A DNA stretch of 21,902 bases from positions 1-21,902 of the forward strand of contig JAZDJR010000027.1 in NCBI GenBank assembly GCA_043803815.1. Reading direction: 5' to 3'. Position 1 is the stretch's first letter; each line of letters starts with the position of its first letter. This DNA comes from Candidatus Micrarchaeota archaeon (GTDB lineage: Archaea > Iainarchaeota > Iainarchaeia > Iainarchaeales > JAGVWC01). Below the pieces are notes generated by a model that saw only the letters and a program-made list of their open reading frames with translations, ran no database searches and was not told the DNA's origin. Positions 1,834-21,737 of this stretch are shown piece after piece. A program made the position numbers and the translations under genes.

Positions 1834-1889
1834 AAAAGTGTCGCTAAAGCCAGGTTAACTGTTGCCCGAAAAAGAAAAGGTCGTTTTAT

Positions 1890-5514: not shown

Positions 5515-5533
5515 ACTATCACAAAGCCAAATG

Positions 5534-6160
5534 CTAGCGAAGGCCGGAACGGGTAAGTTTTTGAACTCTTTTGGTCCTTATCCGCCAATTATACCCTTGA
5601 GCCACTCTTGCGGCCGATTTTTTAATTGAATCCGAACCTCGCAAAGTTTTCAAAAGTTTCTTGTGCTTATAATGCATTAAAACCTCGACAATGTTGCCCT
5701 GGAAAAAACGTTCCCTTTCCAACGGGTCCTCCCACTTGCCCCTTTTTTTCACAGTCCTGCGTTTAAGGCTCAAGGAAGCGGGAACATACATGTGGAACAC
5801 CGTATTCAACTCCAACCCGTATTTTTTTATAAGCCCGTCAAGCAAGTCGACTTGTTTCATAGTGCTTGGAAAATTATCCAAGACAAAACCCCGCTTAAAC
5901 TTGCCTGGCTGGGAATGCAATGCCTGTTCTATCATCTCAATGACAAGTTCATCAGGAACCTGCTTTTTTTCGGCAAATACCTGCTGAAAAAATACTCCCA
6001 GTTTGGAGTTTTTTGCAGCTTCAGTCCGGGCCAATTTTCCAATGGAAATGAAAGGAAGGCCGATTTTTCGGTGAACTTCCATCCCAGCTCTTGTTTTTCC
6101 GCTTCCCGTCCGCCCCAAAAGAACAAAAACTTGAGCACCATTAAAGAAATCGGGATTCAA
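5534..6160 (-). CDS. Adenylate kinase-family NMP kinase, LID-less and divergent
   Basis: GRTGSGKT, ISIGKLAR, VPDE and GFVLDNFP. Start placed at TTG 6160 after a GGTG SD-like site. The 32-codon upstream extension in the ORF track looks non-coding. Confidence 0.75.
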   Translation of the reverse strand: MNPDFFNGAQVFVLLGRTGSGKTRAGMEVHRKIGLPFISIGKLARTEAAKNSKLGVFFQQVFAEKKQVPDELVIEMIEQALHSQPGKFKRGFVLDNFPSTMKQVDLLDGLIKKYGLELNTVFHMYVPASLSLKRRTVKKRGKWEDPLERERFFQGNIVEVLMHYKHKKLLKTLRGSDSIKKSAARVAQGYNWRIRTKRVQKLTRSGLR

Positions 6161-6259
6161 AAAACAACACCAATAGCAATATATCAAATGAAGAGAATAT
6201 ATAGATTCTCGCTTTAAAAATAATAATACCGCAATATACAAATCAAAGAAGGTCAACCG

Positions 6260-6817
6260 ATGGCTTCAAACAACAGGGAAATTGAAATAAAATTCAGGAT
6301 TCAAAATCCGGAAGAAATAAGGAAAAAAATAATGAAAAGCGGAAAGCTTATCGGCAAAGCATTCGAGAAAACAATCCGTTTTGACACCAAAACAAAAAAT
6401 TTGGAAAAAGAAGAAAAATTTATCCGAATCCGATCCGGATTCAGCAACACCCTGACTTTCAAAAGAAAAATAGAAAACAAAGAGTTCAGAGAAAGAGAAG
6501 AAATAGAATTAGAAATTTCCGATATTGAAAAAATGAGGCAAATACTCAAAAACTTGGGTTTTGACAAAGAACTAATAATGGAAAAACATCGCGAAAAATG
6601 GAAGTTTAAGGATGCGGAAATAGCGCTGGATACGCTTCCCATGGGAACCTTCGTTGAAATCGAAGGAAGCGAGCAGTCAATCAAAGAAACGGCAAAACTT
6701 CTCGGGCTGGATTTTGAAAACAGGATTCTTGAAACATACTGGGAAATCTGGAAAGACTACACGAAAAAAAACAGGATTCAAAGCGAAGACATAACTTTTG
6801 AAGCAATAAAAAAATAG
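6260..6817 (+). CDS. CYTH domain protein (class IV adenylate cyclase / triphosphate tunnel metalloenzyme family)
   Basis: N-terminal EIEIK, IRIR, LTFK, REEIE, K.REKW and FVEIEG motifs. Confidence 0.9.
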   Translation: MASNNREIEIKFRIQNPEEIRKKIMKSGKLIGKAFEKTIRFDTKTKNLEKEEKFIRIRSGFSNTLTFKRKIENKEFREREEIELEISDIEKMRQILKNLGFDKELIMEKHREKWKFKDAEIALDTLPMGTFVEIEGSEQSIKETAKLLGLDFENRILETYWEIWKDYTKKNRIQSEDITFEAIKK

Positions 6818-6840
6818 GATTTTATCTAAAAATGTTTGGA

Positions 6841-7998
6841 TTATTTTTTGGCGACGATTAACGGAACCCATAGCTCCTGCTTGGATAGGCCGCCGTGATG
6901 GCTGATGTGGTGCTTTGGCTTTTCATAGTCCGGAACGCTGTTAAGGCCCCAGCCAGTTTTCATCAAAAGCGTGTAATCTCCGATTCGTTCGTAAAAATGC
7001 GGGTGCACGGTAAACCGCCCGAAAAGCCCTTTTTTGGCCAATTCTTTGCTTTTGAACAAATCGCACGAACGGCCAAAGCGTGATTTTACGTATTTAACAA
7101 ACGCTTTTTCTTTTCCCAGGCGAACCGAACAAAAAGAAAAACGATGCTCGCCGGACAAGGGCGTTGCCAGAATTTCTTTCAATTTCGGGTGGTCATTCAA
7201 ATCGATTGTTTTCTTTTTTGGAACATCAATCAATCCATGGTCGGCCGTTACAATTACGATGGTATTTGTTCCTTCAATGGAATCCAAAAAAGAGGAAAAA
7301 TCGCGGTCCAATTGCCTGAAATGCGAAACCACCTGTCGGCTATCCGTTCCGAACTTATGACATAAGGAATCGATTTTGTCATAATACGCATAAACAAATT
7401 TTCTTTGTTTTCCCGAACCAACGGCTTTTTGGATGCTGCTGAAAAAATCTTTGCGGGTTTTGAAACCGATTCGCTTGGCTTTTCCGGCGCACGTCGAGGA
7501 AAAATCCGAATCAAAATAGTCCCGATGCTGAATAATAAAAGATTTTGTCTTCAAACGGTTTGTCAGCCAATCCAGGCGAAAAACGTTTTGGATTGGAATT
7601 TTTTCCTGCAGAGAAACCTTTTTTTCCAACCGCAACACATACGGCAACGGAATCACAACGCTGCCAAACTCCCACAAAAACATGTACCAAGCCAGCATGC
7701 CGTGCTCTTGCGGGGACAGACCAGTTAAAAAGGACGGAATCGCGGAACTCGTGCTGGTCGGAAAAACACTCGTCATTTTTCCGCGCAAAAAATGAAAAAA
7801 GGAACTGTTCTTTCCGTGCTTTTGCAAGAACTCAAAGCCCAACCCATCCACAACAATCAAAACAACGTTTTTGACCTGTTTGAGTTCCTTTGGGGACAAA
7901 AGACGCAACGGCGCATAACCGGAACGGCCGCCAAACGCGGTTTCAATGGAAGAAACCAGATTCAAAATGCTTCCGCCGGAATAATCGGGCTTATTCAT
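6841..7998 (-). CDS. Alkaline phosphatase superfamily protein (type I phosphodiesterase / nucleotide pyrophosphatase)
   Basis: VVDGLG, SVFPTST, D...HKFG, TADHG and HHGGLS.EL.VP motifs. Confidence 0.9.
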   Translation of the reverse strand: MNKPDYSGGSILNLVSSIETAFGGRSGYAPLRLLSPKELKQVKNVVLIVVDGLGFEFLQKHGKNSSFFHFLRGKMTSVFPTSTSSAIPSFLTGLSPQEHGMLAWYMFLWEFGSVVIPLPYVLRLEKKVSLQEKIPIQNVFRLDWLTNRLKTKSFIIQHRDYFDSDFSSTCAGKAKRIGFKTRKDFFSSIQKAVGSGKQRKFVYAYYDKIDSLCHKFGTDSRQVVSHFRQLDRDFSSFLDSIEGTNTIVIVTADHGLIDVPKKKTIDLNDHPKLKEILATPLSGEHRFSFCSVRLGKEKAFVKYVKSRFGRSCDLFKSKELAKKGLFGRFTVHPHFYERIGDYTLLMKTGWGLNSVPDYEKPKHHISHHGGLSKQELWVPLIVAKK

Positions 7999-9095: not shown

Positions 9096-10088
9096 TCATT
9101 TATCCAAAAACGCGCCAGCCACGAGCAATGGAAACAAAATTGTGGTATCGCCGACGACTTTTACGGTGTTGGCGTCCGCGGAGATTTTTCCCCATGATTT
9201 GGCTTCTTCCGGCTCGGCACCCGAGTCTGAGCCGTCGAATTCGCTCGAAGTATTCATATAAATCGCGTATTTGGCGCCTTCGCGGTACATGTTGGCGTTG
9301 CAAAGCGTGTGCTTGACAAGCCCCGCGCCGACAATCAAAATTCCGGTTTCTTTGGCGTCGAGTGTCATTTCAATCAGGCGATGATGGTCCATAATCTGGT
9401 CGATTACGAGCTTGGTTTTCTGGTTGTAATTGAAAAAATAGCAGTTGTCCCCTACCGCGCCGTCCATGAAAGCAGGGCAAAAAATCGGAATATTGTTTTT
9501 GGATGCCCAATAACAAATCGATTCGCGGTTGTCGATAATCTCACCCATTTTTTTGATTATTTCCGAAGCAGAAAAAATTTTTCCCGAATTGATTTGCTCA
9601 TTCAGGCACTCTTTCAGGATGGGCTGAAAGAATTTTTCAAACCAGGTATAATGCTCGTTTGGCGCGAGCAGATTTCCGATGCGATTAATCCCTTTTTTTC
9701 GCAAGGCTGCGCCATCCAGGCGAAAATCCGCGACAAAAAAAGGCGCGTGGCACTTGATAAAATCCTCTTCGATTCCGCCGGTTGTGGTCACGAGGCAATC
9801 GACCAAGCGGTGCTCGACCAAATAGCGGATGACTTCGCGGTTGCCGCTGGAAACCTGATTTGAAGTATACCCCAAAAAAAGCGTTACTTTTTCTTTTCGC
9901 ATTTTTTTGCAGATTTCAATGGCGCGGGCAAGGTGCGTAGCCTGAAAGCCCGCGGTTCCAAACGAATCCAAAAGTTTCGAAAGGTCCGCGGGTTCGTTAA
10001 AATCAATTCCGCGAACCGCTATGCCGCTTGCTTTCGCGCTTTTCTTAAAAATGCTCTTATACGCGTCCTTAAAGGTTTTTTTAGCCAA
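9096..10088 (-). CDS. dys: Deoxyhypusine synthase
   Basis: GFQAT, LGYTSNQVSSG.RE, TTGGIEED, GINRIGN and FDGSDSGA.PEEAKSWGK (catalytic Lys). TTG start after GGTGAT. Confidence 0.97.
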   Translation of the reverse strand: MAKKTFKDAYKSIFKKSAKASGIAVRGIDFNEPADLSKLLDSFGTAGFQATHLARAIEICKKMRKEKVTLFLGYTSNQVSSGNREVIRYLVEHRLVDCLVTTTGGIEEDFIKCHAPFFVADFRLDGAALRKKGINRIGNLLAPNEHYTWFEKFFQPILKECLNEQINSGKIFSASEIIKKMGEIIDNRESICYWASKNNIPIFCPAFMDGAVGDNCYFFNYNQKTKLVIDQIMDHHRLIEMTLDAKETGILIVGAGLVKHTLCNANMYREGAKYAIYMNTSSEFDGSDSGAEPEEAKSWGKISADANTVKVVGDTTILFPLLVAGAFLDK

Positions 10089-10178
10089 AAAATCACCAAA
10101 CCGATAAAATCACCAACAAAAGGGCTTTAAAAAGGATTTTGAAAACCAATAAAATACGCTAAAAAAACGGGTTTTGAA

Positions 10179-13034
10179 ATGACTTTAGACTTTTCCGGCA
10201 TGGAAGCCAAATGGCAAAAAGAATGGGACCAAAACCGCGTTTCCAAAGCCAATGCCCAAAAGGGAAAACCCAAGTTTTTTTTGATTTTTGCCTACCCCGG
10301 AATGTCGGGCTTTTTGCACGTTGGACACATGCGCGGCTTCACCTATTCCGACGTGATTACGCGATTCAAACGCATGCAGGGCTACAACGTTCTTTTTCCC
10401 GCGGGTTTTCACGCGAGCGGATTACCCGCGATTTCGTACGCCACCAAGGTCCGCAAAAAAGACCCTTCCACGATTGAACAACTCAAAGCATATGGACTGA
10501 ACTCAAACCAAATCGCGGAACTGGAAAAACCTGAAAATGTGGTCGCGTTTTTTTCCAAAGTTTATGTTAACGATTTTTGGAAACCGTTCGGATTCCTCAT
10601 CGACTGGAACCGAGGAATAAGCACGATTGCTCCCGAATACCAAAAATTCATCGAATGGCAATTCAAAAAACTCAAGCAAAACAATTTGCTCGTGCAAAAA
10701 CCGCACTACGCGCCCCAATGCCCCGTGGACGGACCGGTAGCCATCGACACCAGCGAAACCGACATTTCAAGCGGCGGAAACGCGCAAACACTCGAATACA
10801 CGCTCCTCAAATTCAAATACGATTCTTACGTTTTGCCTGCGGCCACGCTTCGGCCCGAAACCATTTTCGGAGTGACCAACTTTTGGCTTAACCCCGAAAC
10901 CACCTTGATTGAATGCGAATACCAAAACCAAAAATGGCTCGTTACCAAAGAAGCCGCCAATAAAATCGCTTACCAAAAACCGGAATTCCAAATCAAGACC
11001 AAAACCATTCCCGCAAAAGAACTCATCGGAAAAACCGTAACCAATCCCGCAACAAACCAAAAAATAATCATTTTGCCAGCCTTTTTTGTGGATGCTGGAA
11101 CCGGAACCGGCATTGTCATGAGCGTTCCCAGCCACGCGCCATTCGACTGGATAGCGCTTTTTGAACTGCAACAAAAACCCGAACAATTAAAAAAATTCGG
11201 AATCGACCAAAAACAATTGGACAGCATCCGGCCCATTTCATTAATCAATACCGCGGGCTACGGCCCCCACGCCGCAATCGAGGAATGCCAAAAGCGCGGA
11301 ATCGTTTCGCTTTCGCAGGAAAAAGAACTCGAAGAGGCAACCAAGGCGGTTTATGCCGCGGAGTTCCACGCGGGAAAACTAAACGCGATTTACAAGGAAT
11401 TGCAGGGAACCACCGTCAGCCAGGCTAAGGACAAAATCATCGAATCGTTCAAACGGCAAAAAATCTGCGACGACCTGCTCGGCTTTTCCGAAAAAGTGAT
11501 TTGCCGCTGCGGTACCGAAGTCGTATTCAAGCACATCCCCGATCAATGGTTCATCCGCTACTCAGACGAAACCCTAACCCAAAAAACCAAAGACCACGTA
11601 TCCGGCATGACCGTTGTTCCCGAACAATACAAAACCGAACTGCCCGCAATATTGGACTGGTTTTCCGACCGCGCCTGCGTCCGCCAGGGAAACTGGCTCG
11701 GCACGCGCTTTCCATTCGACAACAAATGGATAATCGAACCCATTTCCGATTCCACGCTTTATCCGTTGACTTATCTTTTCAGCAATTACGTCAAAGAAAA
11801 AAAACTCTCGGAAAAAAACCTGACCGAAGAATTCTTTGATTTTGTCTTTTTGGAAAAAGGAAAAAGCGGCGATGCGGCCAAAAAAAGCGGTATTAGCGAG
11901 GCTTTATTGGAGCAAATCCGGTCCGATGTCCAGTACTGGTACCCGTTAGACATCAATTTGGGGGGCAAGGAGCACAAAACCGTGCATTTCCCCGTTTTTT
12001 TAATGAACCATTGCGGAATACTGCCCCAAAAATACTGGCCAAAAGGCATTTTCGTCAACTGGTGGGTCACGGGCGAAATCGGCAAAATATCCAAATCCAA
12101 AGGCGGTGCAAACTCGCTTCACGACCTGACCACACGGTTTTCCGTCGACGCGCTTCGCCTCTATTACTGCAACATCGGAAACCCGCACCTGGATATCCAG
12201 TTCAGCGAAGAAACCGCCCAAAAATACAAAAACACGCTTGAACGAAACCAGCAAATAATCGAAAAAAGTTTGAGTAGCAAGACCACTGAACTGCGGCTGT
12301 TTTTGGACGAATGGCTCGAAAACAAGACCCGCGAACAATTCCAAACCGCCTACCAAGCTCTCGAAGAATACCGCATCAAGGAATACTCGGAAACCGTTTA
12401 CTATTCAATCCCCCAAACCATCAAGGACTACTTCCAGCGCGAAGGAAACAACGCCAAACTCCTGCAAAAAATCGTTTCCGAATGGACACTATCCATGGCA
12501 CCAATTACTCCCCACTTGGCCGAAGAAAACTGGCACGTTCTTTTAAAACAAAAAACATTAGTTTCCACACAAATTTGGAAACCCGATTCCAAACCCGTTA
12601 ATCCAAGCGTTCTTCAAGCCGAAAACATGATTAACCGGCTCTGCGAAGATATCGAAAAAATCAAATCGCTTGCCAAAATCGCCAAACCAAAATCGATTAC
12701 GTTTTATCCAAGCCCGAAATGGAAATGGAACCTGCTCAAAACAGTCCTAGACACCAACACCGACAAACCCGACTTCAAAAAAACAATCGGATTAATCATG
12801 CAAAAAACCGAATTCAAATCCCGCGGAAACGAAATCCCCCAACTCATCCAAAAAATCCTGAACGACGTGGGCTCCCTGCGCGAAATCGTTTCCGTTGACG
12901 AAGTTAAAGTACTTACGCAGGAACAAAAATTCTTCGAAAAAAAATTTGGCTGCACAATCAAAATCGAAGCGGAATCAGCCAACCCAAAAGCAGGCAAAAG
13001 CTTTCCGCAAAAACCGGCGATACAAATAGAATAA
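10179..13034 (+). CDS. leuS: Leucine--tRNA ligase (archaeal type)
   Basis: 951 aa. HVGH, ATLRPET, GTGIVMSVPSHAPFD (editing domain), IEPISDST and KISKSKG. Confidence 0.97.
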   Translation: MTLDFSGMEAKWQKEWDQNRVSKANAQKGKPKFFLIFAYPGMSGFLHVGHMRGFTYSDVITRFKRMQGYNVLFPAGFHASGLPAISYATKVRKKDPSTIEQLKAYGLNSNQIAELEKPENVVAFFSKVYVNDFWKPFGFLIDWNRGISTIAPEYQKFIEWQFKKLKQNNLLVQKPHYAPQCPVDGPVAIDTSETDISSGGNAQTLEYTLLKFKYDSYVLPAATLRPETIFGVTNFWLNPETTLIECEYQNQKWLVTKEAANKIAYQKPEFQIKTKTIPAKELIGKTVTNPATNQKIIILPAFFVDAGTGTGIVMSVPSHAPFDWIALFELQQKPEQLKKFGIDQKQLDSIRPISLINTAGYGPHAAIEECQKRGIVSLSQEKELEEATKAVYAAEFHAGKLNAIYKELQGTTVSQAKDKIIESFKRQKICDDLLGFSEKVICRCGTEVVFKHIPDQWFIRYSDETLTQKTKDHVSGMTVVPEQYKTELPAILDWFSDRACVRQGNWLGTRFPFDNKWIIEPISDSTLYPLTYLFSNYVKEKKLSEKNLTEEFFDFVFLEKGKSGDAAKKSGISEALLEQIRSDVQYWYPLDINLGGKEHKTVHFPVFLMNHCGILPQKYWPKGIFVNWWVTGEIGKISKSKGGANSLHDLTTRFSVDALRLYYCNIGNPHLDIQFSEETAQKYKNTLERNQQIIEKSLSSKTTELRLFLDEWLENKTREQFQTAYQALEEYRIKEYSETVYYSIPQTIKDYFQREGNNAKLLQKIVSEWTLSMAPITPHLAEENWHVLLKQKTLVSTQIWKPDSKPVNPSVLQAENMINRLCEDIEKIKSLAKIAKPKSITFYPSPKWKWNLLKTVLDTNTDKPDFKKTIGLIMQKTEFKSRGNEIPQLIQKILNDVGSLREIVSVDEVKVLTQEQKFFEKKFGCTIKIEAESANPKAGKSFPQKPAIQIE

Positions 13035-13137: not shown

Positions 13138-13782
13138 ATGCGTTTGTCGGAAAAGCGTTGGTTGACATTGGTTTGGATTTTGTCCAATAAGGACCGTTCG
13201 TGGAGTATTTTGGATTTGCAAAAATCAAGCAAGTCTTTGGGTTATGGCCCGATTTGGGATTTTGTAAAGGAACTGGAACGAAGCGGTTTCATAACAAAAG
13301 ACGAATCTTCGAATGAATTTCGGGTTTCAAAGGCGCGGGATTTGATTCAATTAATGGCGCTTTCGCGGCCCTTGTCCACTTTGTTTCCCCGCTTGTTTTA
13401 TTCTGCCAAGGATTTTACCGCCAAGCTGGAGTTGGTGTCCCGTGCAAAAATGGATTATGCCTTGACGGTTTTTGGGGCCAGCGAACTGTGGCGTTCGTAC
13501 GTGAAAACCGAACTCGTACATTTTTACGTTCAAACCAAAGACCTTTCAAAATGGGAAAAATATTTGTTGTCCAATGGCTGCCTGAAAGCCGAGCGTTCCG
13601 ACGCCAATATTTTACTGCACCCCGTTCCGTTAGAATCCTTTTTTAGCCTAACTCAAACCATCAAGAGACTAAAAGTCGCTCCGGCGCCAGTGGTTTTAGC
13701 GGACTTAATCAGTTTCGGAAGCCTAGGCCAGGAACAAGCCCAGTTTTTGATGGAAGAATGGCTTTCCGGCAGGATGAAATAA
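13138..13782 (+). CDS. wHTH-containing AbiEi-like antitoxin/regulator
   Basis: N-terminal wHTH, YALT..GA, VHFYV, ANILL and V.ADL...G..GQEQA pattern. TAATG-coupled to a nucleotidyltransferase gene. Confidence 0.65.
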   Translation: MRLSEKRWLTLVWILSNKDRSWSILDLQKSSKSLGYGPIWDFVKELERSGFITKDESSNEFRVSKARDLIQLMALSRPLSTLFPRLFYSAKDFTAKLELVSRAKMDYALTVFGASELWRSYVKTELVHFYVQTKDLSKWEKYLLSNGCLKAERSDANILLHPVPLESFFSLTQTIKRLKVAPAPVVLADLISFGSLGQEQAQFLMEEWLSGRMK

Positions 13783-14525
13783 TGGAACGCTTGATGATTA
13801 AAAAATCGGACGAGCTGTTGCGCCAGTTCTTTTTGGCGCTCTCGCCAAACGAGCGAATGCATGTCGGCCTTATGGGGGGCTGGGCCGTGCATTATTTGCT
13901 CAAGCGCGAAGGAAAAGAACACATGGGCTCCAGAGACATCGACATTTTTATTGACCCCCACACTATCAAAGAAAAAACGCTTTTTGAACACTTGAAAAAA
14001 CTCGGGTTCCAACCCCATTCGACGTTTCGCTGGTCAAAGTTCTTTCATTCTGAAACCGAACAAGAATTGTCCGGCGAAGAAAGCAAAAAACACCCTTCCC
14101 ACAATATTTCGCCCGTATTCTTTGACATCGCAACCCCGGTTAAAACCAAACACTCGATGCCCGAACCCCTGCTCAAAAAAGTCTATGCCGGACAAAAAGA
14201 AACCTTTTCCCTTTCCGGCGTCAATGTCATGGTTCCAAGCCCCAAAATACTCGTTGAAATGAAACTGGGCTCCAGCATCGAACGACCAGACCCCTTCAAA
14301 CGGGCCAAAGACCTCGTTGACCTATACAACTTATTGGATTGCTTTTCTGACTTGTGGGCAGTGAACAACAATGAGCGAATCAAAGTCAAAAACATACCTG
14401 CAAAAAAAATTAAAAAATTCAAAGCCAAACTGGACCAATTCCGAACCGACGGCACATTAAACGATGCTGCAACCCTGGCCCGAAACACTCCCGCCCGCAT
14501 GTATTCCCTATTCCAAAAAATGTGA
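13782..14525 (+). CDS. AbiEii-like nucleotidyltransferase (putative type IV toxin)
   Basis: LMGGWAV, GSRDIDI, L..MK and KDLVDL motifs. Start at ATG 13782, overlapping the upstream TAA. Confidence 0.75.
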   Translation: MERLMIKKSDELLRQFFLALSPNERMHVGLMGGWAVHYLLKREGKEHMGSRDIDIFIDPHTIKEKTLFEHLKKLGFQPHSTFRWSKFFHSETEQELSGEESKKHPSHNISPVFFDIATPVKTKHSMPEPLLKKVYAGQKETFSLSGVNVMVPSPKILVEMKLGSSIERPDPFKRAKDLVDLYNLLDCFSDLWAVNNNERIKVKNIPAKKIKKFKAKLDQFRTDGTLNDAATLARNTPARMYSLFQKM

Positions 14526-14893
14526 TTCGCACAAAAAGAATTTTGAACAAAACGCATAAAACGAACAAAAAAGGAAAAATAATACCCCGCAAAATTAATC
14601 GGCTTATTCAGCAAATACGCAATGCTTCCGCTCTTAATCTCAAAATCCATATCCTCATGAACCCGAACCGCGGACAACGCCAAAATCTCGGCAATCGCCA
14701 CATACCAAACCAAAGAAACCAATGAATAACCCGCCAAAACGGTTTTTCCGCTTGAAGCCAAACCGACACTCCACAACTGCGCATACGCAAACAACACAAC
14801 GGCCAAAAAAACAAACCGCCCGAAAAACTCGAACCGATACGAAAAAAAATCGCGCAAATTAATCCGAAAAACAGCCACGTACTTGGACAGCAT
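14526..14893 (-). pseudogene. Truncated ABC-2 family permease (DUF990-like)
   Basis: From ATG 14893: KYVAVFRINLRDFFSYRFEF..LW..LAGYS..LVWY..EIKSGSIAYLLNKPIN. After about 110-120 codons the frame runs antisense into the nucleotidyltransferase gene. Confidence 0.7.
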
Positions 14894-14982
14894 AACGACA
14901 AAAACCAACCACCAAACCCAATATAAAAAAAACCCGCAAAAAAAACGAGTATAATAACCCCCTATTTTTTCGACAAACAACG

Positions 14983-15089: not shown

Positions 15090-16013
15090 ATGCTTGCACT
15101 GATTGGCTTGGGTTACTGGGGAAAAAATTATTATTCCACACTGACCAAGTTAGGAAAACGGTGTCTGCTTCGTTATATTTACGACTCTAACGAAAAATTA
15201 AGAGGGAAATATAGTGGTGAAAAAATAATCTTTGCCAAATCCATAGATGAAATTTTAAAAGATGACTCAGTCAAGGGAGTAATCATAGCTACCCCACCCG
15301 CCACTCATTTTAAAATTGCCAAGGCCTGTTTATTGGCTGGAAAAAATGTGCTTGTTGAAAAACCATGCACGGGAAATTTAAAAAAAGCGATGGAATTAAA
15401 GAAAATTTCGAACACGATTGGGCGCCAACTGCTCGTTGGAAACATTTTCCTATTTGATGACTGCGTTAAACGTCTCAAAACCAAAATTAAGAAACAAAAA
15501 ATAAAATTCGTCTCCATTAAGCGATTATTAACTCCTAAAAGAGAAGATGCCGATATACTCCTTGATGTTGTTTTTCACGATTTATATTTAACGAATTATC
15601 TCTTCGATAAGAATTTCAAGGCTAAACACGCATTTATAACCAAGAAATTTGCACGCCAATTTGATTATGCTCACATAACCCTATCCAATGGACCGACCAT
15701 TGTTTGCATCGAAGCGGGGCTGGTTTATCCAAAAAAAGTAAGAGAGCTTCTATTAGTAAGCGACAAAAAAAGTTTCTTTTATGACCAAAACTATTTGACT
15801 GAATACAAAAATATTTTTTCCGAACAAATACCCCGCTTTAAACTCCTTTCAAAAACCAAAAATCGCGCAACCCCATTGGAAAACGAATGTATCAATTTCA
15901 AAAACGCGATTCTTGGCGGAAAAGACAACTACAAAACCCTGCACTACGCGTTAATAAGTTTGCAAAAAATCAAAGAAATCAGGAAGTTATGCCATGCAAA
16001 TACCTTTTGTTGA
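15090..16013 (+). CDS. Gfo/Idh/MocA family NAD(P)-dependent oxidoreductase
   Basis: IGLGYWGKN, ATPPATH, GKNVLVEKP and D...HD motifs. AAGGA SD. Confidence 0.92.
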   Translation: MLALIGLGYWGKNYYSTLTKLGKRCLLRYIYDSNEKLRGKYSGEKIIFAKSIDEILKDDSVKGVIIATPPATHFKIAKACLLAGKNVLVEKPCTGNLKKAMELKKISNTIGRQLLVGNIFLFDDCVKRLKTKIKKQKIKFVSIKRLLTPKREDADILLDVVFHDLYLTNYLFDKNFKAKHAFITKKFARQFDYAHITLSNGPTIVCIEAGLVYPKKVRELLLVSDKKSFFYDQNYLTEYKNIFSEQIPRFKLLSKTKNRATPLENECINFKNAILGGKDNYKTLHYALISLQKIKEIRKLCHANTFC

Positions 16014-17085
16014 CCTCTACCGAGAGAATCGCATCTGCCAAAAAAGAGTCTTGAATTCAATAACCGAACTGATACAGAACGGCACCTTTATTCTTGGCAA
16101 AGACGTAGAGACTTTTGAAAAAAAATTTTCCGACTATATTGGAGCCAAGTATTGCGTTGGAGTTAATTCTGGAACCGACGCGCTGTACCTGGCGCTCTTA
16201 GCCAACAATATTGGACCCGGAGACGAAGTTATCACAACAGCAAACACATACATAGCAACCGCATTGAGCATCAAATATACCGGGGCCAAAACAGTTTTTG
16301 TTGACATAAAACCGGGGCAGTATAACATAAATCCGGAAAAAATACAGGAAAAAATCACCCCAAAAACAAAGGCTATTTTGCCAATACACTTATTTGGGCA
16401 TCCAGCCAATTTAAAGGAAATAAAAAGGGTTGCCGATGAAAACGACCTCGCATTAATCGAGGATTGTTGTCAGGCCCACGGAGCAACAGCAAACAATCGC
16501 AAAGTCGGAACTTTTGGGGACGCGGGATGTTTTAGTTTTTACCCGTCAAAAAACCTTGGCGCGTTTGGAGATGGGGGAGCACTAGTAACAAATAATCAAA
16601 ATATTTACAAAAAAGCGCTTGCCATGCGCTCCTATGGCCAAGTCGCCAAAAATAAACATGATTTATTCGGCGTCAACAGCAGGCTGGATTCTATCCAAGC
16701 GCTTGTTCTGCTTGAAAAATTAAAATATCTCGACGAAAACAACAAAAAAAGAAGGATTCTCGCTAAACGATATAAAAACGGCCTAACAAGCAAAGAATTT
16801 ATCCTGCCAAAAGAAGAGAAAAATTGTAAATCCGTTTATCACTTGTTTGTTATAAGAACAAAAAAACGCGCCCAACTCATCAAGTACCTCACGTCAAAAA
16901 AAATCGGGTTTGGAATACACTACCCAATTCCGATTCATCACCAAAAAATTTTTTCCGAGTATTGTGGACAAAAACTCCCAATAACCGAAAAATACAGCAA
17001 CGAAATAATTTCGCTCCCATTTTTTCCCCATATGTTAGAAGAAGAAATATCTCGAGTAATTGAAAAATTAAATGAATTTGGATGA
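15994..17085 (+). CDS. DegT/DnrJ/EryC1/StrS family PLP aminotransferase
   Basis: IPFVDL, NSGTDAL, GDEVI, HLFG, EDCCQAHGA, SFYPSKNLGAFGDGG (PLP Lys) and NSRLD. Confidence 0.95.
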   Translation: MQIPFVDLYRENRICQKRVLNSITELIQNGTFILGKDVETFEKKFSDYIGAKYCVGVNSGTDALYLALLANNIGPGDEVITTANTYIATALSIKYTGAKTVFVDIKPGQYNINPEKIQEKITPKTKAILPIHLFGHPANLKEIKRVADENDLALIEDCCQAHGATANNRKVGTFGDAGCFSFYPSKNLGAFGDGGALVTNNQNIYKKALAMRSYGQVAKNKHDLFGVNSRLDSIQALVLLEKLKYLDENNKKRRILAKRYKNGLTSKEFILPKEEKNCKSVYHLFVIRTKKRAQLIKYLTSKKIGFGIHYPIPIHHQKIFSEYCGQKLPITEKYSNEIISLPFFPHMLEEEISRVIEKLNEFG

Positions 17086-18496
17086 TTTGATGGATTGCGC
17101 AAGCATGATTGTAAAGCACAGCGGCAAATATCTTTTGCAATTAAGAGACGATAATCCAGCCATTCCTTTCCCGAATACGTGGGGATTATTTGGCGGAAAA
17201 ATTGAGCCCAATGAAACGCCCGAAGAAGCGGTGTTCCGCGAGTTCAAAGAAGAGACCGGAATAGCCATTGATAAATTTTATTTTTATAAAAAAGCAGAAT
17301 TTGCCGACGGGAATGAATACCTGTTTTATACTCTCGATTATATTCCATTGCGGAGAATACAACTATCGGAAGGACAAAAAGCGGAGTACGTTGCAAAAAA
17401 CAAGCTTAAAAAACTGGGTTTTTGTTTGCATGACGGGGTTGATTTGGTTGATTTTGATGCTAATTTTTCTAAACGCCCCAAGGGCGCCCCCTTAAACAGG
17501 TATTCCCGGGTACGCGCATTACTATTTGAAAATAAGCTGCCGCTAGAAAATCAAAAAATGGGTGTGCAGCCATTACCTCAAGAAGCAGAGACTTTTTTCA
17601 AAAATTCCCATTTTTTTAGAAGGGGCATTTTTATCGGACAACGCGGATTTGAAGAGACACTTAAAGGAATAGGGAAGGGAGAAAAATTCGACGTAGTGGT
17701 TGGGGTTGCCGCTTCAGGACAGTTCCAACTTGGGGGAAAACTGGACATTACTGTGTTAAATTTTTTTAAGTCAAAAGGAATGCCGGTACATGTATGGATT
17801 CTTGATATCGACGGGTATATCGACAGGAAAAGAGTCCATTCCCCCATCGAAGCAAAAGCGTTTACTAAAAATTATATCAAAAATATCAAAAAACTCGGGC
17901 TAAGCGAGGACGATATCGTGATTCAAAGCCAAAAAGAGAGCGATTATTTTACGGATGCGTTATGCCTGTCCAAGGAAATAACGCTTAATACATTCTCAAA
18001 AACATACGGCCATTGCAATGCAGGATTCTTATTTTCTTCCTTGTTAATGTATTCAATGTTTTTTAATTATATTAAGCAAAAAAAGAAAGTGCTGGGCATC
18101 GGCGGAATAGAAGAGGATTCCCACGCCAGGATTTTGCGGGACATTTTACGGAAAAAATACGGCACGCCCGAAGGCATTTCTTTTTTATATTTCAAACACC
18201 AGGACAACCTTACAATCGGCAATGACCGGTTGAGCTCTTCACACCCCGAATCAACAATATTTTTTGACGAACCGGAAAGCGAAATCAGCCAAAAAATAAA
18301 TGCCGCATTCGAATACAAAGAAGACATAACAAAATGCAAAGTATTTGAATTTTACAAATATAACGAACCAAACGACCAAACACTTAATAAAATATTTGGG
18401 GACTGCGTTTCCAACAAACTGAATTGTAAAAACTGCAAAAAAACGGCAACGCAAATGGTTCTAAACATAATTAAACCAAAAATGGAAGAAGGATAA
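17072..18496 (+). CDS. Nudix hydrolase fused to a degenerate tryptophanyl-tRNA synthetase-like domain
   Basis: Intact Nudix box GKIEPNETPEEAVFREFKEETGI. The C-terminal ~310 aa aligns by eye with the downstream TrpRS (RG.F.G.R.F, ASG, LSK.IT..TYG, EDSH.RI.RD), but HIGH is QLGG and KMSKS is RLSSS. Confidence 0.85.
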   Translation: MNLDDLMDCASMIVKHSGKYLLQLRDDNPAIPFPNTWGLFGGKIEPNETPEEAVFREFKEETGIAIDKFYFYKKAEFADGNEYLFYTLDYIPLRRIQLSEGQKAEYVAKNKLKKLGFCLHDGVDLVDFDANFSKRPKGAPLNRYSRVRALLFENKLPLENQKMGVQPLPQEAETFFKNSHFFRRGIFIGQRGFEETLKGIGKGEKFDVVVGVAASGQFQLGGKLDITVLNFFKSKGMPVHVWILDIDGYIDRKRVHSPIEAKAFTKNYIKNIKKLGLSEDDIVIQSQKESDYFTDALCLSKEITLNTFSKTYGHCNAGFLFSSLLMYSMFFNYIKQKKKVLGIGGIEEDSHARILRDILRKKYGTPEGISFLYFKHQDNLTIGNDRLSSSHPESTIFFDEPESEISQKINAAFEYKEDITKCKVFEFYKYNEPNDQTLNKIFGDCVSNKLNCKNCKKTATQMVLNIIKPKMEEG

Positions 18497-18508
18497 AGGA
18501 GACTAAAA

Positions 18509-19603
18509 ATGAATTTAAACGCACTTTTAGAAGATAACCAAAAATTAGTAGACCGATTCGGCGCACAACGCATTCAAGACCTTTCAGACGTTCCGGATTT
18601 TTATACTTTTAAGAATGGACTTATTTTTTCCCATCGCGACTTTGACACATTTTATGCCGGATTAAAAAAAGGAAAAAGAAGCGCCATCGTTTCAGGCTTT
18701 AATGCCTCCGGAACTATGCATATCGGCCACAAAGCCGTTTTTGACACCAACCTATTTTTTCAAAAAAAATACGGTTTGCCCGTCTTTATTCCCATTTCAG
18801 ACGATGAGAGTTATGTTTCCGGAAAAGTTGAATCGCAGGAAGATGCACTAAAAAATTCGATGCAATTGGCAAAAGAAATGCTGGCGTACGGATTCGACCC
18901 TCAAAAAACGTATATTGTCATTGACCAGATTTATACAACGATTTATAATCTGGCCATAAAGCTATCGAAACGGCTAACAGTATCAGAAGTTCGGGCAACA
19001 TACGGGTATCGAATGGAAAATAATCCCGGATTATTTTTTTATCCTTGCATCCAAGCCGCCCACATCTTGCTTCCGTTGGAATCCTTCAATTTCGAGCAAA
19101 TATTGGTCCCAATAGGCCCTGACGAAGATAGTCACATTCGGATTTGCCGAGACTTGGCCGGAAGATTTGGATATGCAAAACCCGCCGTTCTTCATGTGGC
19201 TTTTATGCCCGGCACCGACGGTTCAAAAATGTCAAAATCACGAAACAACATGATCAACCTGCAAGACGACGAAAAAATCATTCGCAAACGAGTCAGCAAA
19301 GCATTCAGCGGGGGGGCCATCACAGTTGAGGAGCATCGAAAAAATGGCGGAGACCCAACCAAAGACATATCGTTTTTTTACCTTTCAAAATATTTTTTGA
19401 ATCAAAACGAAGCCAATAATCTCGCAAGCAAGTACCAAAACGGCGAACTATTAAGCGGGGAAATGAAAAAAATGCTGGCAGACAAACTGGTCGAGTTCAC
19501 CACCCAATTCAAAAAGAATCTTTCCCAAATCACCGAACAAGAAATCAAAAAAGTATTATTGTCAAAAAAAGAAACCGGGACAGAAACCCACGAGCCACAG
19601 TAA
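18509..19603 (+). CDS. trpS: Tryptophan--tRNA ligase (archaeal/eukaryote-like)
   Basis: HRDFD, SGTMHIGH (HIGH at 18719-18730), SDDE, YPCIQAA, KMSKS (19226-19240) and AFSGG..T.EEHRKNGGDP. AAGGAG SD. Confidence 0.92.
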   Translation: MNLNALLEDNQKLVDRFGAQRIQDLSDVPDFYTFKNGLIFSHRDFDTFYAGLKKGKRSAIVSGFNASGTMHIGHKAVFDTNLFFQKKYGLPVFIPISDDESYVSGKVESQEDALKNSMQLAKEMLAYGFDPQKTYIVIDQIYTTIYNLAIKLSKRLTVSEVRATYGYRMENNPGLFFYPCIQAAHILLPLESFNFEQILVPIGPDEDSHIRICRDLAGRFGYAKPAVLHVAFMPGTDGSKMSKSRNNMINLQDDEKIIRKRVSKAFSGGAITVEEHRKNGGDPTKDISFFYLSKYFLNQNEANNLASKYQNGELLSGEMKKMLADKLVEFTTQFKKNLSQITEQEIKKVLLSKKETGTETHEPQ

Positions 19604-19756
19604 CTGAATAGATAGCCGCACTTAAGCCACGGTCTTCCCTCGTATCAGTTCCAGATTTTTCCTCAAATAGTCCGCGAATTCGGTTTCGAGCAATACCTCA
19701 ACGCCGAAAAAATCGTTTGACCTGCAAAAAAAACCAAAAGAACAATGGAACAAGCA

Positions 19757-20638
19757 TTAAAGCAATTTGAACGGCGACGCAGCTCGCACTTCTTTTTTAT
19801 TTGGAAAGTATTCCGCAATTTTTTCATAGGCAAAACGGGCCAATTGGGGGTTGCGAAAAATCCGCACCGTTATATCCATTTTGGGCTGCTTTTTCATCAA
19901 ATGCTTGGAATAAAGCGAAAAAAGGTCCACTAAATTGTTGAGTTTTGAATACAAGTTTTCCAACATTTTTCGGGTTTCTTTCGAAAACTCGACTTCATAA
20001 TAATACGAACCTGAAGCGCCAAAATCCTTTTCGAACGTTGCTGTCGGGTCAATGTGAACCGAAAAACCTGCTTCCTCATACCGCTCTTTTACCCAACGGT
20101 CAAAGGGCAAATTTTCCCCAATCAAGACAAAAATCTTGCCAGACTGCACTTCTGCCATTTTATGCAGGAGCGAGAAATCCGTAAAACTAAATGACAATGG
20201 AAACCATGCGCCCCGAATGAAAGCTATTGCCGCTCCCTTTGGTTCCATGATTTTTCCCATTTGGATAAAAATTTTTGTCATTGAAACGCAAAAAACGGAA
20301 AAATTGTCAAAGTGCAATTCGGTTTGAGCCCCAAATTTTTTAGGAACCTTTTTGGCTCCCGAACGGGAAAGCTCTGCTTCCAAGTCCAAAGAAAACTTTT
20401 TTAGATTCAAAACCCAATCCAGGTCAAGGGCAAACTTCCTGTTTTCGAAAACCACGATTCCTTCAGATTCCAACTGCGAAAGCATCTTGTGAACCGCTTG
20501 ATACGAAAAACGCTCTCCCGATAACCGCTCCAATTCTACCTGAATTTCCTTGACAGAAAGCGGCCATTGTTTACTCAAAATCGAAACAATCAAGTCGCGC
20601 GAAGAGCCTTTCTTACCAGCCAAAGGAACCAAGACCAT
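19757..20638 (-). CDS. wHTH (YQxVHK family) regulator with an uncharacterised C-terminal domain
   Basis: SSRDLIVSILSKQWPLSVKEI..FSYQAVHKML..LDWV. Paralog of 20868-21737. Start taken at ATG 20638. Confidence 0.8.
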   Translation of the reverse strand: MVLVPLAGKKGSSRDLIVSILSKQWPLSVKEIQVELERLSGERFSYQAVHKMLSQLESEGIVVFENRKFALDLDWVLNLKKFSLDLEAELSRSGAKKVPKKFGAQTELHFDNFSVFCVSMTKIFIQMGKIMEPKGAAIAFIRGAWFPLSFSFTDFSLLHKMAEVQSGKIFVLIGENLPFDRWVKERYEEAGFSVHIDPTATFEKDFGASGSYYYEVEFSKETRKMLENLYSKLNNLVDLFSLYSKHLMKKQPKMDITVRIFRNPQLARFAYEKIAEYFPNKKEVRAASPFKLL

Positions 20639-20706
20639 AAATGCACAAGTGGACAAAAGGTGTTTAAAGCAGTTTTAATGCCTGCTACGACATTACGCTC
20701 TCGTTC

Positions 20707-20826
20707 AAAAGCAGTCGCTCGCTCAAAACCGAAACAACCGCATCCCGAGCAGACAAATTAGGCAAAACCAAACCCGAAAAAGAAAAACCAGCTGTCACTT
20801 TCCAACCGCCCTTTCCGACTGCTTTT
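20707..20826. repeat. 11-bp perfect inverted repeat, arms 98 bp apart
   Basis: aaaagcagtcg (20707-20717) and cgactgctttt (20816-20826) between the two wHTH paralogs. Confidence 0.4.
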
Positions 20827-20867
20827 TCTCCAACTCCAAAACCCACAAACGCAACGAATCCGCCAAT

Positions 20868-21737
20868 TCATGTGCTTGGTGATTTTGGACCATGCGTTTC
20901 CCAATACTTTTGGTAAAGCTTGATTCCTTCTTCTCTTAGGTTTCTTGCGAGCTCGGGATTTCTGGATATTACTACTTTGATTTGGCTTTTTTGCGTGTAA
21001 ATTTCAAACAATTTGGCTAAGTCAAAAGTATCAATATTTTTGGTTTTAGCAAAAATAGCATTTATTTTAGTCTTTAGTTCAAGAGGATAAAAAATCTGCG
21101 CTACATAATCCCCTTCCACTACAATATCCCCCTCAGCAGGGTAATTGACCCCATAAATCGATTTTTTCCCAAGTTTTACCACAAACTGGTTTCCATAGTG
21201 GTCTAGTGGCGTATTACCACGATACAGACCATAATAAGGAAGTTCAAAAATTCGCTTGATCTGCTCAAAATCTTTTTCGTCGGCGCCAATAGGCATCCAA
21301 GCGTGCATTAGCATTGCAATGCGCGGTTTTTTTTCAGGGTTTGGAAATTCCCAATTAAACTTATGAACAATAAACCGGATAGTCTCCAGCAAACTGTCAA
21401 AACGCAGGTTAATTATATCTTGATTTTGAAAATTCTTAAATGGGCTTTCTTGCGCATAGTTTTGACCGAGCTGTTCACTAAACGATTTGATTCGGCTAAT
21501 CCAATCTGAATTCAGGCAATACCCCTCTTCTCCCCTTACAACAACTTTTTCACTTACCAACAGACCAATCATTTTATGGACTGCTTGGTAAGTTGCAGAA
21601 ATAGCATACTCTGTTTTTGCAATCTGATGAATTTGCTTTAAAGACAAAGGCCAACGATTTGACAAAATGCTAATAATAGCATCTTTTGTGGAAAGTCCTT
21701 GAATTCCCAGTCCTGGCAGGGTTAAAGTAATGGACAT
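20868..21737 (-). CDS. wHTH (YQxVHK family) regulator with an uncharacterised C-terminal domain
   Basis: STKDAIISILSNRWPLSLKQI..TYQAVHKMI..LNSDWI. Shares HAW.P/GAW.P, N.P.D and RNP.LAR with 19757-20638. AGGAG SD. Confidence 0.85.
   Translation of the reverse strand: MSITLTLPGLGIQGLSTKDAIISILSNRWPLSLKQIHQIAKTEYAISATYQAVHKMIGLLVSEKVVVRGEEGYCLNSDWISRIKSFSEQLGQNYAQESPFKNFQNQDIINLRFDSLLETIRFIVHKFNWEFPNPEKKPRIAMLMHAWMPIGADEKDFEQIKRIFELPYYGLYRGNTPLDHYGNQFVVKLGKKSIYGVNYPAEGDIVVEGDYVAQIFYPLELKTKINAIFAKTKNIDTFDLAKLFEIYTQKSQIKVVISRNPELARNLREEGIKLYQKYWETHGPKSPST

Follow-up and report, generated by a model that had tools for sequence, protein, structure and literature searches.

We analysed a window of 21,902 nucleotides, which is the whole 21.9-kb contig JAZDJR010000027.1 (C27) of a Candidatus Micrarchaeota genome of the order Iainarchaeales (G000; 1.08 Mb, 36 contigs, 85.6% complete), and found in it a cassette of four genes (15090-19603) whose third gene joins a Nudix domain to a tryptophanyl-tRNA synthetase (TrpRS) copy. 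Judged from its sequence, this fusion is a neofunctionalised TrpRS paralog and not a remnant, and the four genes, which encode a dehydrogenase, an aminotransferase, the fusion and an intact TrpRS, appear to make up a single module that is rare and foreign in composition. On the product of this module our reading is tentative: it may be a 3-amino sugar nucleotide that is tryptophanylated instead of acetylated, by way of the TrpRS-derived domain and with tryptophan activated by the neighbouring TrpRS. An aminoacyl-tRNA synthetase (aaRS) paralog would thereby be recruited outside translation; both the protein and its wiring are genuinely unusual.

The Nudix-TrpRS fusion and its conserved cassette

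The cassette and the genes behind it comprise the following features.

15090-16013, + strand: Gfo/Idh/MocA NAD-dependent dehydrogenase P0003, 307 aa (Pfam PF01408)
15994-17085, + strand: DegT/DnrJ/EryC1-family pyridoxal phosphate (PLP) aminotransferase P0004, 363 aa (Pfam DegT_DnrJ_EryC1)
17072-18496, + strand: Nudix and TrpRS-like fusion P0001, 474 aa (Pfam NUDIX and tRNA-synt_1b)
17072-17536, + strand: Nudix domain of the fusion, residues 1-155 (Pfam NUDIX, Nudix-box regex)
17195-17263, + strand: Nudix box, fusion residues 42-64 (exact regex match)
17537-18496, + strand: TrpRS-derived domain of the fusion, residues 156-474 (Pfam tRNA-synt_1b)
17726-17737, + strand: QLGG of the fusion, at the HIGH position (motif)
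18227-18241, + strand: RLSSS of the fusion, at the KMSKS position (motif)
18335-18436, + strand: C-x22-C-x6-C-x2-C of the fusion, residues 422-455 (motif)
18509-19603, + strand: intact TrpRS P0002, 364 aa (TIGR00233, Pfam tRNA-synt_1b)
18719-18730, + strand: HIGH of P0002, residue 71 (motif)
19226-19240, + strand: KMSKS of P0002, residue 240 (motif)
19757-20656, - strand: putative regulator, a domain of about 200 aa behind a helix-turn-helix-like N-terminus (homology to L030:6862-7710(-))
20868-21737, - strand: second paralog of the putative regulator family (homology to L030:6862-7710(-))

An earlier note on this DNA had described four co-oriented, tightly linked genes of these families, and the coordinates of the open reading frames (ORFs), their spacing (20 nt and 14 nt of overlap and, before the last gene, a gap of 12 nt, all on the + strand) and the Pfam matches agree with it. 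It had also remarked on the lack of a glycosyltransferase, an acyltransferase and a flippase; none of these domains appears in the ORF list or the Pfam scan of 15090-19603. Nor does the cassette hold a Pur3-type phosphatase or a transporter or efflux-pump domain, being made of four ORFs only with no large extra ORF.

Firstly, we examined the fusion, P0001. Its single ORF matches NUDIX at 46.4 bits (cut-off of PF00293, 21.1) and tRNA-synt_1b at 44.8 bits. The Nudix box GX5EX7REUXEEXGU is exact in three of three fusion orthologs, and the best curated matches of the Nudix domain are MutT (40.6 bits), NudI and NudG, with NudI 3n77 in the PDB. Across all libraries, the profile that it matches best is PDC-S07, a candidate for phage defence from PADLOC (49 bits over the full length, E 9e-14), which scores slightly above MutT. 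A defence system at the locus was considered and set aside: PADLOC gave this single-gene Nudix model alone, as a candidate, and nothing for the other nine proteins. In the C-terminal domain, Q219-L-G-G222 occupies the HIGH position and R386-L-S-S-S the KMSKS position, and the score on the TIGR00233 trpS model is 68 bits, under the cut-off of 176.75; all three marks of a canonical TrpRS (HIGH, KMSKS and the trpS cut-off) are missing. Judged by motif, the domain is probably unable to adenylate, in line with the earlier note, which had read the gene as a Nudix-pseudoTrpRS fusion. We looked for a cyclodipeptide synthase (CDPS) signature in the fusion and found none; the Pfam scan gave NUDIX and tRNA-synt_1b only, and the protein retains a C-terminal domain bearing a Cys motif.

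To describe the TrpRS genes of the order, we distinguished three clades under labels of our own: clade 1 ('GIASSG..H[LF]GH', KMS[AS]S), clade 2 ('GRGPSG..HLGH') and a divergent clade 3 ('GFNASG', KMSKS). Among 116 residues invariant in 12 clade-1 TrpRSs, 49 are kept in both fusions, 11 in one ortholog and 56 are lost in both. Among the residues gone are the two His of HIGH and the K-M of KMSKS, the stretches AHRD and LQYADI, the Gln of GLDQDP and an 11-residue piece of the 'TGG...GG' region, and at many of the lost invariants the replacement residue is identical in both orthologs. In the 34 TrpRS-like representatives recovered from 1.84 billion proteins, the first His of HIGH is kept in all 33 with the region aligned and K-M-S in about 30 of 32. 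A C-x22-C-x6-C-x2-C motif is present in all three fusion orthologs. This spacing conforms to the motif C-x(21-24)-C-x6-C-x2-C of the anticodon-binding domain and binds a [4Fe-4S] cluster in the TrpRS of Thermotoga maritima (PMC2954223, cited from excerpts, as are PMC11641026, PMC9239236 and PMC9437257 below), and, by this motif, the fusion may bind an iron-sulphur (Fe-S) cluster. P0002 lacks the motif; in the order it is found in about half of each clade (5 of 12 clade-1 rows, 5 of 10 clade-2 rows).

Secondly, we placed the fusion in a tree of 47 TrpRS rows (quick IQ-TREE, SH-aLRT support only). The C-domains of two fusion orthologs are sisters (SH-aLRT 100) nested in a 17-row clade-1 group (100), on a stem of 1.83 changes per site that ends in short tips of 0.49 and 0.39, which suggests that the fusion arose from the order's own clade 1 after a long stem branch. 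Between G000 and a second genome, the fusion is 59% identical over its full length and 57% over the C-domain, compared with 57-71% among clade-1 TrpRSs; the tyrosyl-tRNA synthetases (TyrRS) and deoxyhypusine synthases (DHS) of these genomes share 37% and 45%. The fusion is constrained, not decaying, and its C-domain is conserved about as well as working TrpRSs are. That it is a functionless leftover of a displaced native TrpRS is for us barely credible. Such a displacement would fit an order that uses its TrpRS clades patchily, with a few genomes holding two, and G000 has no intact clade-1 gene in a family that uses clade 1; against decay, however, stand a 474-codon frame open in three orthologs (90% and 59% identity), the C-domain conservation just given, the replacement residues common to both orthologs and a perfect Nudix box. 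We also rejected a trivial fusion of conserved neighbours: the stand-alone Nudix and trpS genes of relatives lie on different contigs or 17-40 kb apart. In the ESM Atlas, a comparison by features gave no usable match, and one by structure returned ordinary TrpRS clusters only.

Thirdly, we searched for further copies. From 5.8 billion proteins, a word-indexed search retrieved two relatives: P0006, at 59% identity, and P0005, which comes from a contig of 1.9 kb and reaches 90%. An exhaustive search of 1.84 billion representatives gave 3527 matches at E<=0.001 and two at E<=1e-30, and among the best 150 of the 3527 only P0006 spanned both domains, which amounts to a single cluster at 50% identity with the fusion. 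At E<=1e-55 and with G000 counted, two genomes carry the fusion, out of 196 in the order and 215 in the phylum. No further copies appeared in metagenome contigs (two scans) or viral contigs (one scan), and a scan of genome contigs returned one locus, L030, and one unrelated Nudix, nothing else. In a narrow literature search we found no description of a Nudix-TrpRS fusion.

Locus L030 belongs to the second genome, G178 (G041 is taken as the same genome; contig number and coordinates agree), which comes from another family (f24) than G000 (f1). It carries the dehydrogenase, the DegT aminotransferase, the fusion and a TrpRS, tightly spaced and in the gene order and strand of G000; the fusion directly follows the DegT gene, by 5 nt or an overlap (14-nt overlap in G000). 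The four-gene synteny that the earlier note thought worth seeking in other genomes is thus conserved in the only further genome with the fusion. Since two genomes of different families show this gene order, the cassette is more than a chance arrangement. Identities between the two cassettes are 34% for the dehydrogenase, 49% for the DegT, 59% for the fusion and 33% for the TrpRS. Downstream of the cassette, L030 has a radical-SAM/SPASM gene and a GT1 glycosyltransferase, and the flanks of the two loci share nothing beyond one regulator-like gene.

This gene is divergently adjacent to the dehydrogenase gene in L030 (6862-7710, -), and G000 has two convergent paralogs at 19757-21737: the product of 19757-20656(-) is 24% identical to that of L030:6862-7710(-) (E 6e-15) and that of 20868-21737(-) 27% (E 1.6e-27). 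By inspection, the N-terminus looks like a helix-turn-helix or winged helix, so that a regulator associated with the cassette is possible; the proteins matched nothing in Pfam, NCBIfam or PADLOC. The link to the cassette is weak, since this family, of about 290 aa, counts 4-6 paralogs per genome, often in tandem, and the 20868-21737 gene is probably not cassette-specific, since G002, a genome lacking the cassette, holds an ortholog with 52% identity.

The GC content of the cassette is 38.9%, compared with 46.6% for the genome, at the 1.0 percentile of 943 equal-sized windows, which suggests that the G000 cassette was acquired as a block. The two regulator-like genes behind it have 41.7% and 37.8% GC and the whole window 42.4%; the pattern over 15090-21737 looks like an acquired island carrying the only TrpRS found in the genome. 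In G178, the GC of the cassette (35.8%) is close to that of its own flanks.

The dehydrogenase and the aminotransferase

We then analysed the two upstream enzymes. P0003 matches Pfam GFO_IDH_MocA (hereafter GFO) at 65 bits (cut-off 24). Its best NCBIfam match is NF040723, archaeal UDP-GlcNAc 3-dehydrogenase, at 90 bits, far under the equivalog cut-off of 450. This model is the best curated match of all GFOs tested, and all score below its cut-off: 257 bits for the GFO of G009, 190 for that of the G178 cassette and 179-185 for three others. Of 22 near-invariant residues P0003 retains 18, among them E90-K91-P92 and H163, which we take to be catalytic, and it carries H118N and N123D, near the active-site motif, at two of the 22 positions; the G178 enzyme keeps the H and the N. 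The terminal branch of P0003 is very long (2.61) and lies in the subgroup of the G178 GFO, and a clade of the two cassette GFOs is not rejected by the approximately unbiased test (p-AU 0.365). P0003 would thus be a fast-evolving member of the UDP-sugar 3-dehydrogenase-like group of the order.

P0004 matches Pfam DegT_DnrJ_EryC1 at 401.5 bits. In the PDB it matches 7b0d (396 bits), QdtB (338), WbpE (250) and NtdA (234), as well as two 'putative aminotransferases' and the 'transaminase' 2oga; by the depositors' names, these are presumably the subgroup that aminates C3 of sugars, QdtB being a dTDP-sugar aminotransferase. P0004-like DegTs (40-50% identity) occur in 21 of the 196 genomes of the order, i.e. 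20 besides G000. We surveyed the neighbourhood (flanks of about 1.5 kb) of 18 of the 19 other loci, with G127 left out and G000 and G178 set aside. A GFO is adjacent in 10 of the 18 and a hexapeptide acetyltransferase in 4, the latter matching best the NeuD/PglB/VioB sugar acetyltransferase family, while no Nudix or TrpRS-like gene was found at any of the 18; conversely, the TrpRS loci of relatives have no GFO, DegT or Nudix within 1.5 kb. G009 has a full GFO-LbH-DegT cluster with a UDP-GlcNAc 2-epimerase, a UDP-sugar dehydrogenase and a GT2 glycosyltransferase. In the 1.08-Mb G000 assembly we found no hexapeptide-repeat protein (0 PF00132 matches; the control search was positive in 14 of 14 named genomes), and tblastn with the G009 acetyltransferase found nothing there either. 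G178 has one hexapeptide-repeat protein, on another contig than that of its cassette. Taken together, P0003 and P0004 would form a local, sugar-type pair of C3-dehydrogenase and C3-aminotransferase.

These results bear on the product that the earlier note had proposed, a puromycin-like compound: the dehydrogenase, the aminotransferase and the Nudix would make a 3'-amino-3'-deoxynucleotide from ATP or GTP, to which the TrpRS pair would attach Trp. The operon-like unit, the pseudo-TrpRS and the linkage to TrpRS genes hold, and the three superfamilies of Pur10, Pur4 and Pur7 (and of AdgB, AdgC and AdgD) are indeed adjacent, a likeness at the superfamily level only (PMC11641026, PMC9239236). Homologs of pur10, pur4, pur7 and pur3 suffice for 3'-amino-3'-deoxyguanosine in Photorhabdus (PMC9239236), and Pur6 has been proposed to use aminoacyl-tRNA, some clusters holding a tRNA gene (PMC11641026). 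The Nudix domain resembles the NTP pyrophosphohydrolases MutT, NudI and NudG, P0003 departs from its relatives at H118N and N123D, and no acetyltransferase is present, all of which would suit a nucleotide substrate. However, the GFO and the DegT nest among the acetyltransferase-linked sugar pairs of the order, and the G178 cassette GFO retains the two residues changed in P0003 and scores on the UDP-GlcNAc 3-dehydrogenase model as its sugar-type relatives do. The two cassette DegTs share 0 changes at 53 near-invariant positions, and the score of P0004 against QdtB points to a sugar. The unit also lacks a Pur3-type phosphatase, an efflux pump and an N-acetyltransferase, its TrpRSs appear non-orthologous between the two genomes (see below), and P0002 is the only TrpRS found in G000. 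The earlier note had named a grouping with glycan enzymes as evidence that would count against it, and this came out in part: both enzymes stand among the sugar-type GFO-DegT pairs of the order, which are flanked by an acetyltransferase in 4 of 18 loci. As the acceptor, a sugar nucleotide is likelier than ATP or GTP. The striking puromycin-like product found no support in the tests run here; it is possible but improbable, and less likely than a tryptophanylated amino sugar.

The intact TrpRS and the surroundings of the cassette

The last gene of the cassette encodes a TrpRS, as the earlier note had said: P0002 has HIGH and KMSKS, matches tRNA-synt_1b at 128.9 bits and reaches 236 bits on TIGR00233 (alignment 2-312 of 328), so that it shows all the marks of a canonical TrpRS. 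G000 has three PF00579 matches, namely P0002, the fusion and the TyrRS (417 bits on the TyrRS model). Another trpS, which the earlier note had proposed to look for, did not come to light; since P0002 is the only intact TrpRS found in the genome at its 85.6% completeness, it must at least serve translation. A single tRNA(Trp), bearing an intron, was confirmed on contig C9 (ARAGORN with introns, Rfam); a second, proposed by ARAGORN with introns, was discarded, Rfam confirming the C9 copy only. ARAGORN counts 17 tRNA genes in G000, or 22 with introns allowed, and the window contains none. P0002 and P0004 have zero tryptophan residues; Trp-free TrpRS proteins have been remarked on for bacteria of the candidate phyla radiation (CPR) (PMC5370408).

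Most genomes of the order have one TrpRS. Across the loci compared (L007-L029 and L034), the clades are patchily distributed, at least two of them deeply separated, and two intact copies occur in G178, G009 and G011. P0002 falls in clade 3 beside P0126 and a fragment from G009 and keeps 47 of 81 clade-2 invariants, while P0156, the TrpRS of the G178 cassette, nests in clade 2; in addition, G178 has at another place an intact TrpRS of clade 1. A tree constrained to unite P0002 with P0156 is worse by 130 log-likelihood units (p-AU 2.4e-33; the group was named after the tree had been seen). By this tree, the two cassette TrpRSs are non-orthologous. An intact TrpRS thus stands behind the fusion in both genomes although the gene lineages differ, and this is the best-supported functional link in the locus.

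We predicted the complex of the fusion C-domain with P0002 in three runs, with three controls. The score was 0.55 (runs 0.55, 0.58 and 0.54; best of the three controls 0.00), with at least 80% of contacts in agreement between runs and a partner pLDDT of at least 84. Of 80 solved complexes, 58 pass the mark set for this score, as do 2 of 110 mismatched pairs; passes at 0.60 or less number only 7 among those 80 and include both of the mismatches. The prediction lends weak support to a pairing. Because TrpRS homodimers have been solved, passing may only reflect likeness to known structures.

These observations lead to an explanation that is itself doubtful, and nearly as likely as the tryptophanylated sugar: two biochemically unrelated pairs would travel together, the GFO and the DegT making a 3-amino sugar nucleotide for surface glycans and the fusion being a translation-side accessory of TrpRS. 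The accessory could be an inactive subunit paired with the active TrpRS or a binder of tRNA(Trp) through its retained anticodon domain, and the MutT-like Nudix would thereby be brought to nucleotide by-products (e.g. dinucleoside polyphosphates) or to tRNA. The presence of an intact TrpRS behind both fusions, whatever its clade, fits the need for 'a TrpRS' and not a pathway. The same explanation draws on the Fe-S motif retained in the anticodon domain of the fusion, on the predicted complex, on the class Ic precedent of the trypanosomatid TyrRS pseudo-dimers, one half of which is dead (PMC9437257), on the background synteny of LeuRS and DHS between the two genomes (see below) and on the lack of any active-site change common to the cassette DegTs. 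It leaves aside, however, that the fusion lies directly behind the DegT in both genomes, in the same order and strand, that the 18 other DegT loci are free of Nudix and TrpRS-like genes and the TrpRS genes of relatives free of GFO, DegT and Nudix within 1.5 kb, and that the customary acetyltransferase partner is missing.

The divergence of the TrpRSs also raises the idea of a decoy, an immunity factor or a sensor, which we regard as unlikely. The dead TrpRS pocket would bind a Trp-like or Trp-AMP-like ligand, maybe the product of the cassette, the Nudix would destroy the ligand or its nucleotide precursor and the adjacent TrpRS would be insensitive. Antibiotic producers carry a second aaRS, about 30% identical, as self-resistance, including a TrpRS for indolmycin (PMC9437257), and Pur7 is listed among resistance-mediating enzymes (PMC11641026). 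G178 indeed carries intact TrpRSs from two clades, of which one belongs to the cassette, P0002 is divergent by its count of clade-2 invariants, and a regulator-like gene adjoins both cassettes. On the other hand, no inhibitor-making enzyme was identified, P0156 is an ordinary clade-2 TrpRS on a short branch, and a P0002-type TrpRS is the sole TrpRS match in G010, so that divergence need not mean resistance.

In the rest of the window, ORFs of 214 and 255 aa overlap on the + strand directly upstream of the cassette (13138-14980), and a third ORF, of 265 aa, runs antisense; none of the three has a Pfam or NCBIfam match, and the two + strand ORFs have no PADLOC match. Positions 1267-7998 are dense in nucleotide-handling genes: a Ham1/ITPase, a CYTH triphosphate-tunnel protein, a type I nucleotide pyrophosphatase/phosphodiesterase and, side by side, two adenylate kinases of which only one has a lid domain. 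At 1890-4793, genes for a GT2 glycosyltransferase, a 'variant radical SAM' protein (NF045502, 292 bits, cut-off 125) and a weak UPF0227-like hydrolase overlap as in an operon; this radical SAM protein is not homologous to the one adjoining the G178 cassette.

A tentative tryptophanylated product and its known counterparts

The favoured reading, a tryptophanylated 3-amino sugar nucleotide, can be laid out in four steps. Firstly, by family membership, an NDP-hexose or NDP-HexNAc would be oxidised at C3 and transaminated to the 3-amine. Secondly, and again by family, the intact TrpRS would make Trp-AMP and Trp-tRNA(Trp). Thirdly, and speculatively, the dead TrpRS domain might bind activated Trp and pass the tryptophanyl group to the 3-amine in place of acetylation, by a logic resembling that of cyclodipeptide synthases or MshC. 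Fourthly, and just as speculatively, the Nudix domain might cleave the nucleotide handle or clear a nucleotide by-product. The last two steps are drawn from the gene order and from precedents named in PMC9437257.

Several points weigh against this reading. No transferase chemistry is predicted for the dead TrpRS domain, whose Nudix partner, of MutT/NudI type, looks suited to NTPs rather than NDP-sugars, albeit with weak scores. The synteny comes from two genomic contexts only (n=2), overlapping genes are common elsewhere along the window, and the cassette DegTs are not resolved as sisters but fall in a basal polytomy among their relatives. P0002, as the sole TrpRS found, needs no special role to explain its presence, and the two cassette TrpRSs are apparently non-orthologous; at 85.6% completeness, the absence from G000 of a second TrpRS and of the acetyltransferase is not proven. 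Adjacency can persist without a shared pathway, since the genes of leucyl-tRNA synthetase (LeuRS) and DHS are close neighbours in G000 as well as in G178. They lie at 9096-13034 of the window and at G178:C46:32836-36528; in G178 their orientation differs and 1.6 kb separates them, and the C-terminal parts of the two LeuRS proteins share only 26% identity. This case calls for caution in taking synteny as a pathway. Finally, we know of no tryptophanylated sugar.

aaRS paralogs leaving translation have repeatedly revealed new chemistry, as with MshC, the cyclodipeptide synthases and the amino acid:carrier-protein ligases. Here, a TrpRS copy devoid of its ATP motifs, having gained a Nudix domain and showing an Fe-S motif and TrpRS-like constraint, is wired to an amino-sugar pair that has no customary acetyltransferase, and the cassette offers a concrete, clonable four-gene test case. 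If tryptophanylation is true, it is a new route to acylate amino sugars or aminonucleosides and bears on the open question of how amino acids are joined in puromycin-type pathways; if false, the cassette still documents TrpRS displacement and neofunctionalisation in DPANN archaea. A bolder claim, and a long shot, is that this DPANN archaeon, with its reduced genome, turns a 3-amino-3-deoxy nucleoside or sugar nucleotide into a tryptophanyl amide that would mimic aminoacyl-tRNA or Trp-AMP, with a TrpRS-derived, Fe-S-bearing, non-adenylating Nudix fusion either coupling the two or acting as an immunity decoy. Archaea would then have their first bioactive nucleoside pathway of this kind, and no earlier aminoacyl transferase for aminonucleosides or amino sugars would have derived from an aaRS.

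Among known systems, the cores for puromycin, A201A and 3'-amino-3'-deoxyguanosine (Pur10-Pur4-Pur7-Pur3; AdgB-E) likewise have an adjacent Gfo/Idh/MocA dehydrogenase, DegT-type aminotransferase and small Nudix, and in puromycin the new amine later receives an amino acid, for which aminoacyl-tRNA may be the source (PMC11641026, PMC9239236); Pur6 is given there as a protein of no known domain (PMC11641026). Unlike these cores, the cassette has no Pur3 phosphatase, Pur6-like synthetase, acetyltransferase or pump, its Nudix is fused to a dead TrpRS, its enzymes group with local sugar-type pairs and its host is archaeal. A second counterpart is the UDP-GlcNAc 3-dehydrogenase/3-aminotransferase/N-acetyltransferase triad, which resembles the cassette in the best curated match of P0003, the C3-type DegT P0004 and the GFO-DegT-LbH arrangements of relatives. 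Examples of it are WbpB-WbpE-WbpD, GnnA-GnnB and the archaeal UDP-GlcNAc3NAc route. The cassette differs in having no hexapeptide acetyltransferase in the unit or in assembled G000, in the low score of P0003 (90 vs 450 bits) and in the higher score of P0004 with QdtB (338) than with WbpE (250).

Other likenesses concern the fusion. MshC, a paralog of cysteinyl-tRNA synthetase (CysRS) that ligates Cys to GlcN-Ins, also acylates the amine of an amino sugar; it adenylates its own amino acid and keeps the class I motifs, which the paralog described here has lost, and here an intact TrpRS adjoins. In the excerpt of PMC9437257, MshC is named in reference titles only. Cyclodipeptide synthases, which resemble TyrRS and TrpRS, have a class Ic aaRS-like catalytic fold lacking HIGH and KMSKS and take activated amino acids from aminoacyl-tRNA and not from ATP (PMC9437257); unlike them, the fusion keeps a tRNA-binding domain at its C-terminus, with a Cys motif, and appears to be a recent derivative of a real TrpRS clade. 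The double-length TyrRS pseudo-dimer of trypanosomatids also pairs a dead class Ic half with an active one (PMC9437257), whereas the partners here are two separate genes of different TrpRS clades with a Nudix added, and their pairing is weakly supported by the predicted complex. The T. maritima TrpRS has a C-x22-C-x6-C-x2-C spacing in its anticodon-binding domain identical to that of the fusion (PMC2954223); that enzyme is active, with HIGH and KMSKS, while the cluster of the fusion is inferred from the motif only. Finally, the clusters of TrpRS-A genes, TrpRS-A-like genes and ORF1 in DPANN archaea and CPR bacteria (Mukai et al. 2017) also combine extra, non-canonical TrpRS genes with conserved small clusters of unknown function (PMC5370408). 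They differ from the cassette in holding tRNA(Trp) and ORF1, with no Nudix, GFO or DegT described (PMC5370408, section 3.3), in contrast to our window with its four-gene cassette and no tRNA gene.

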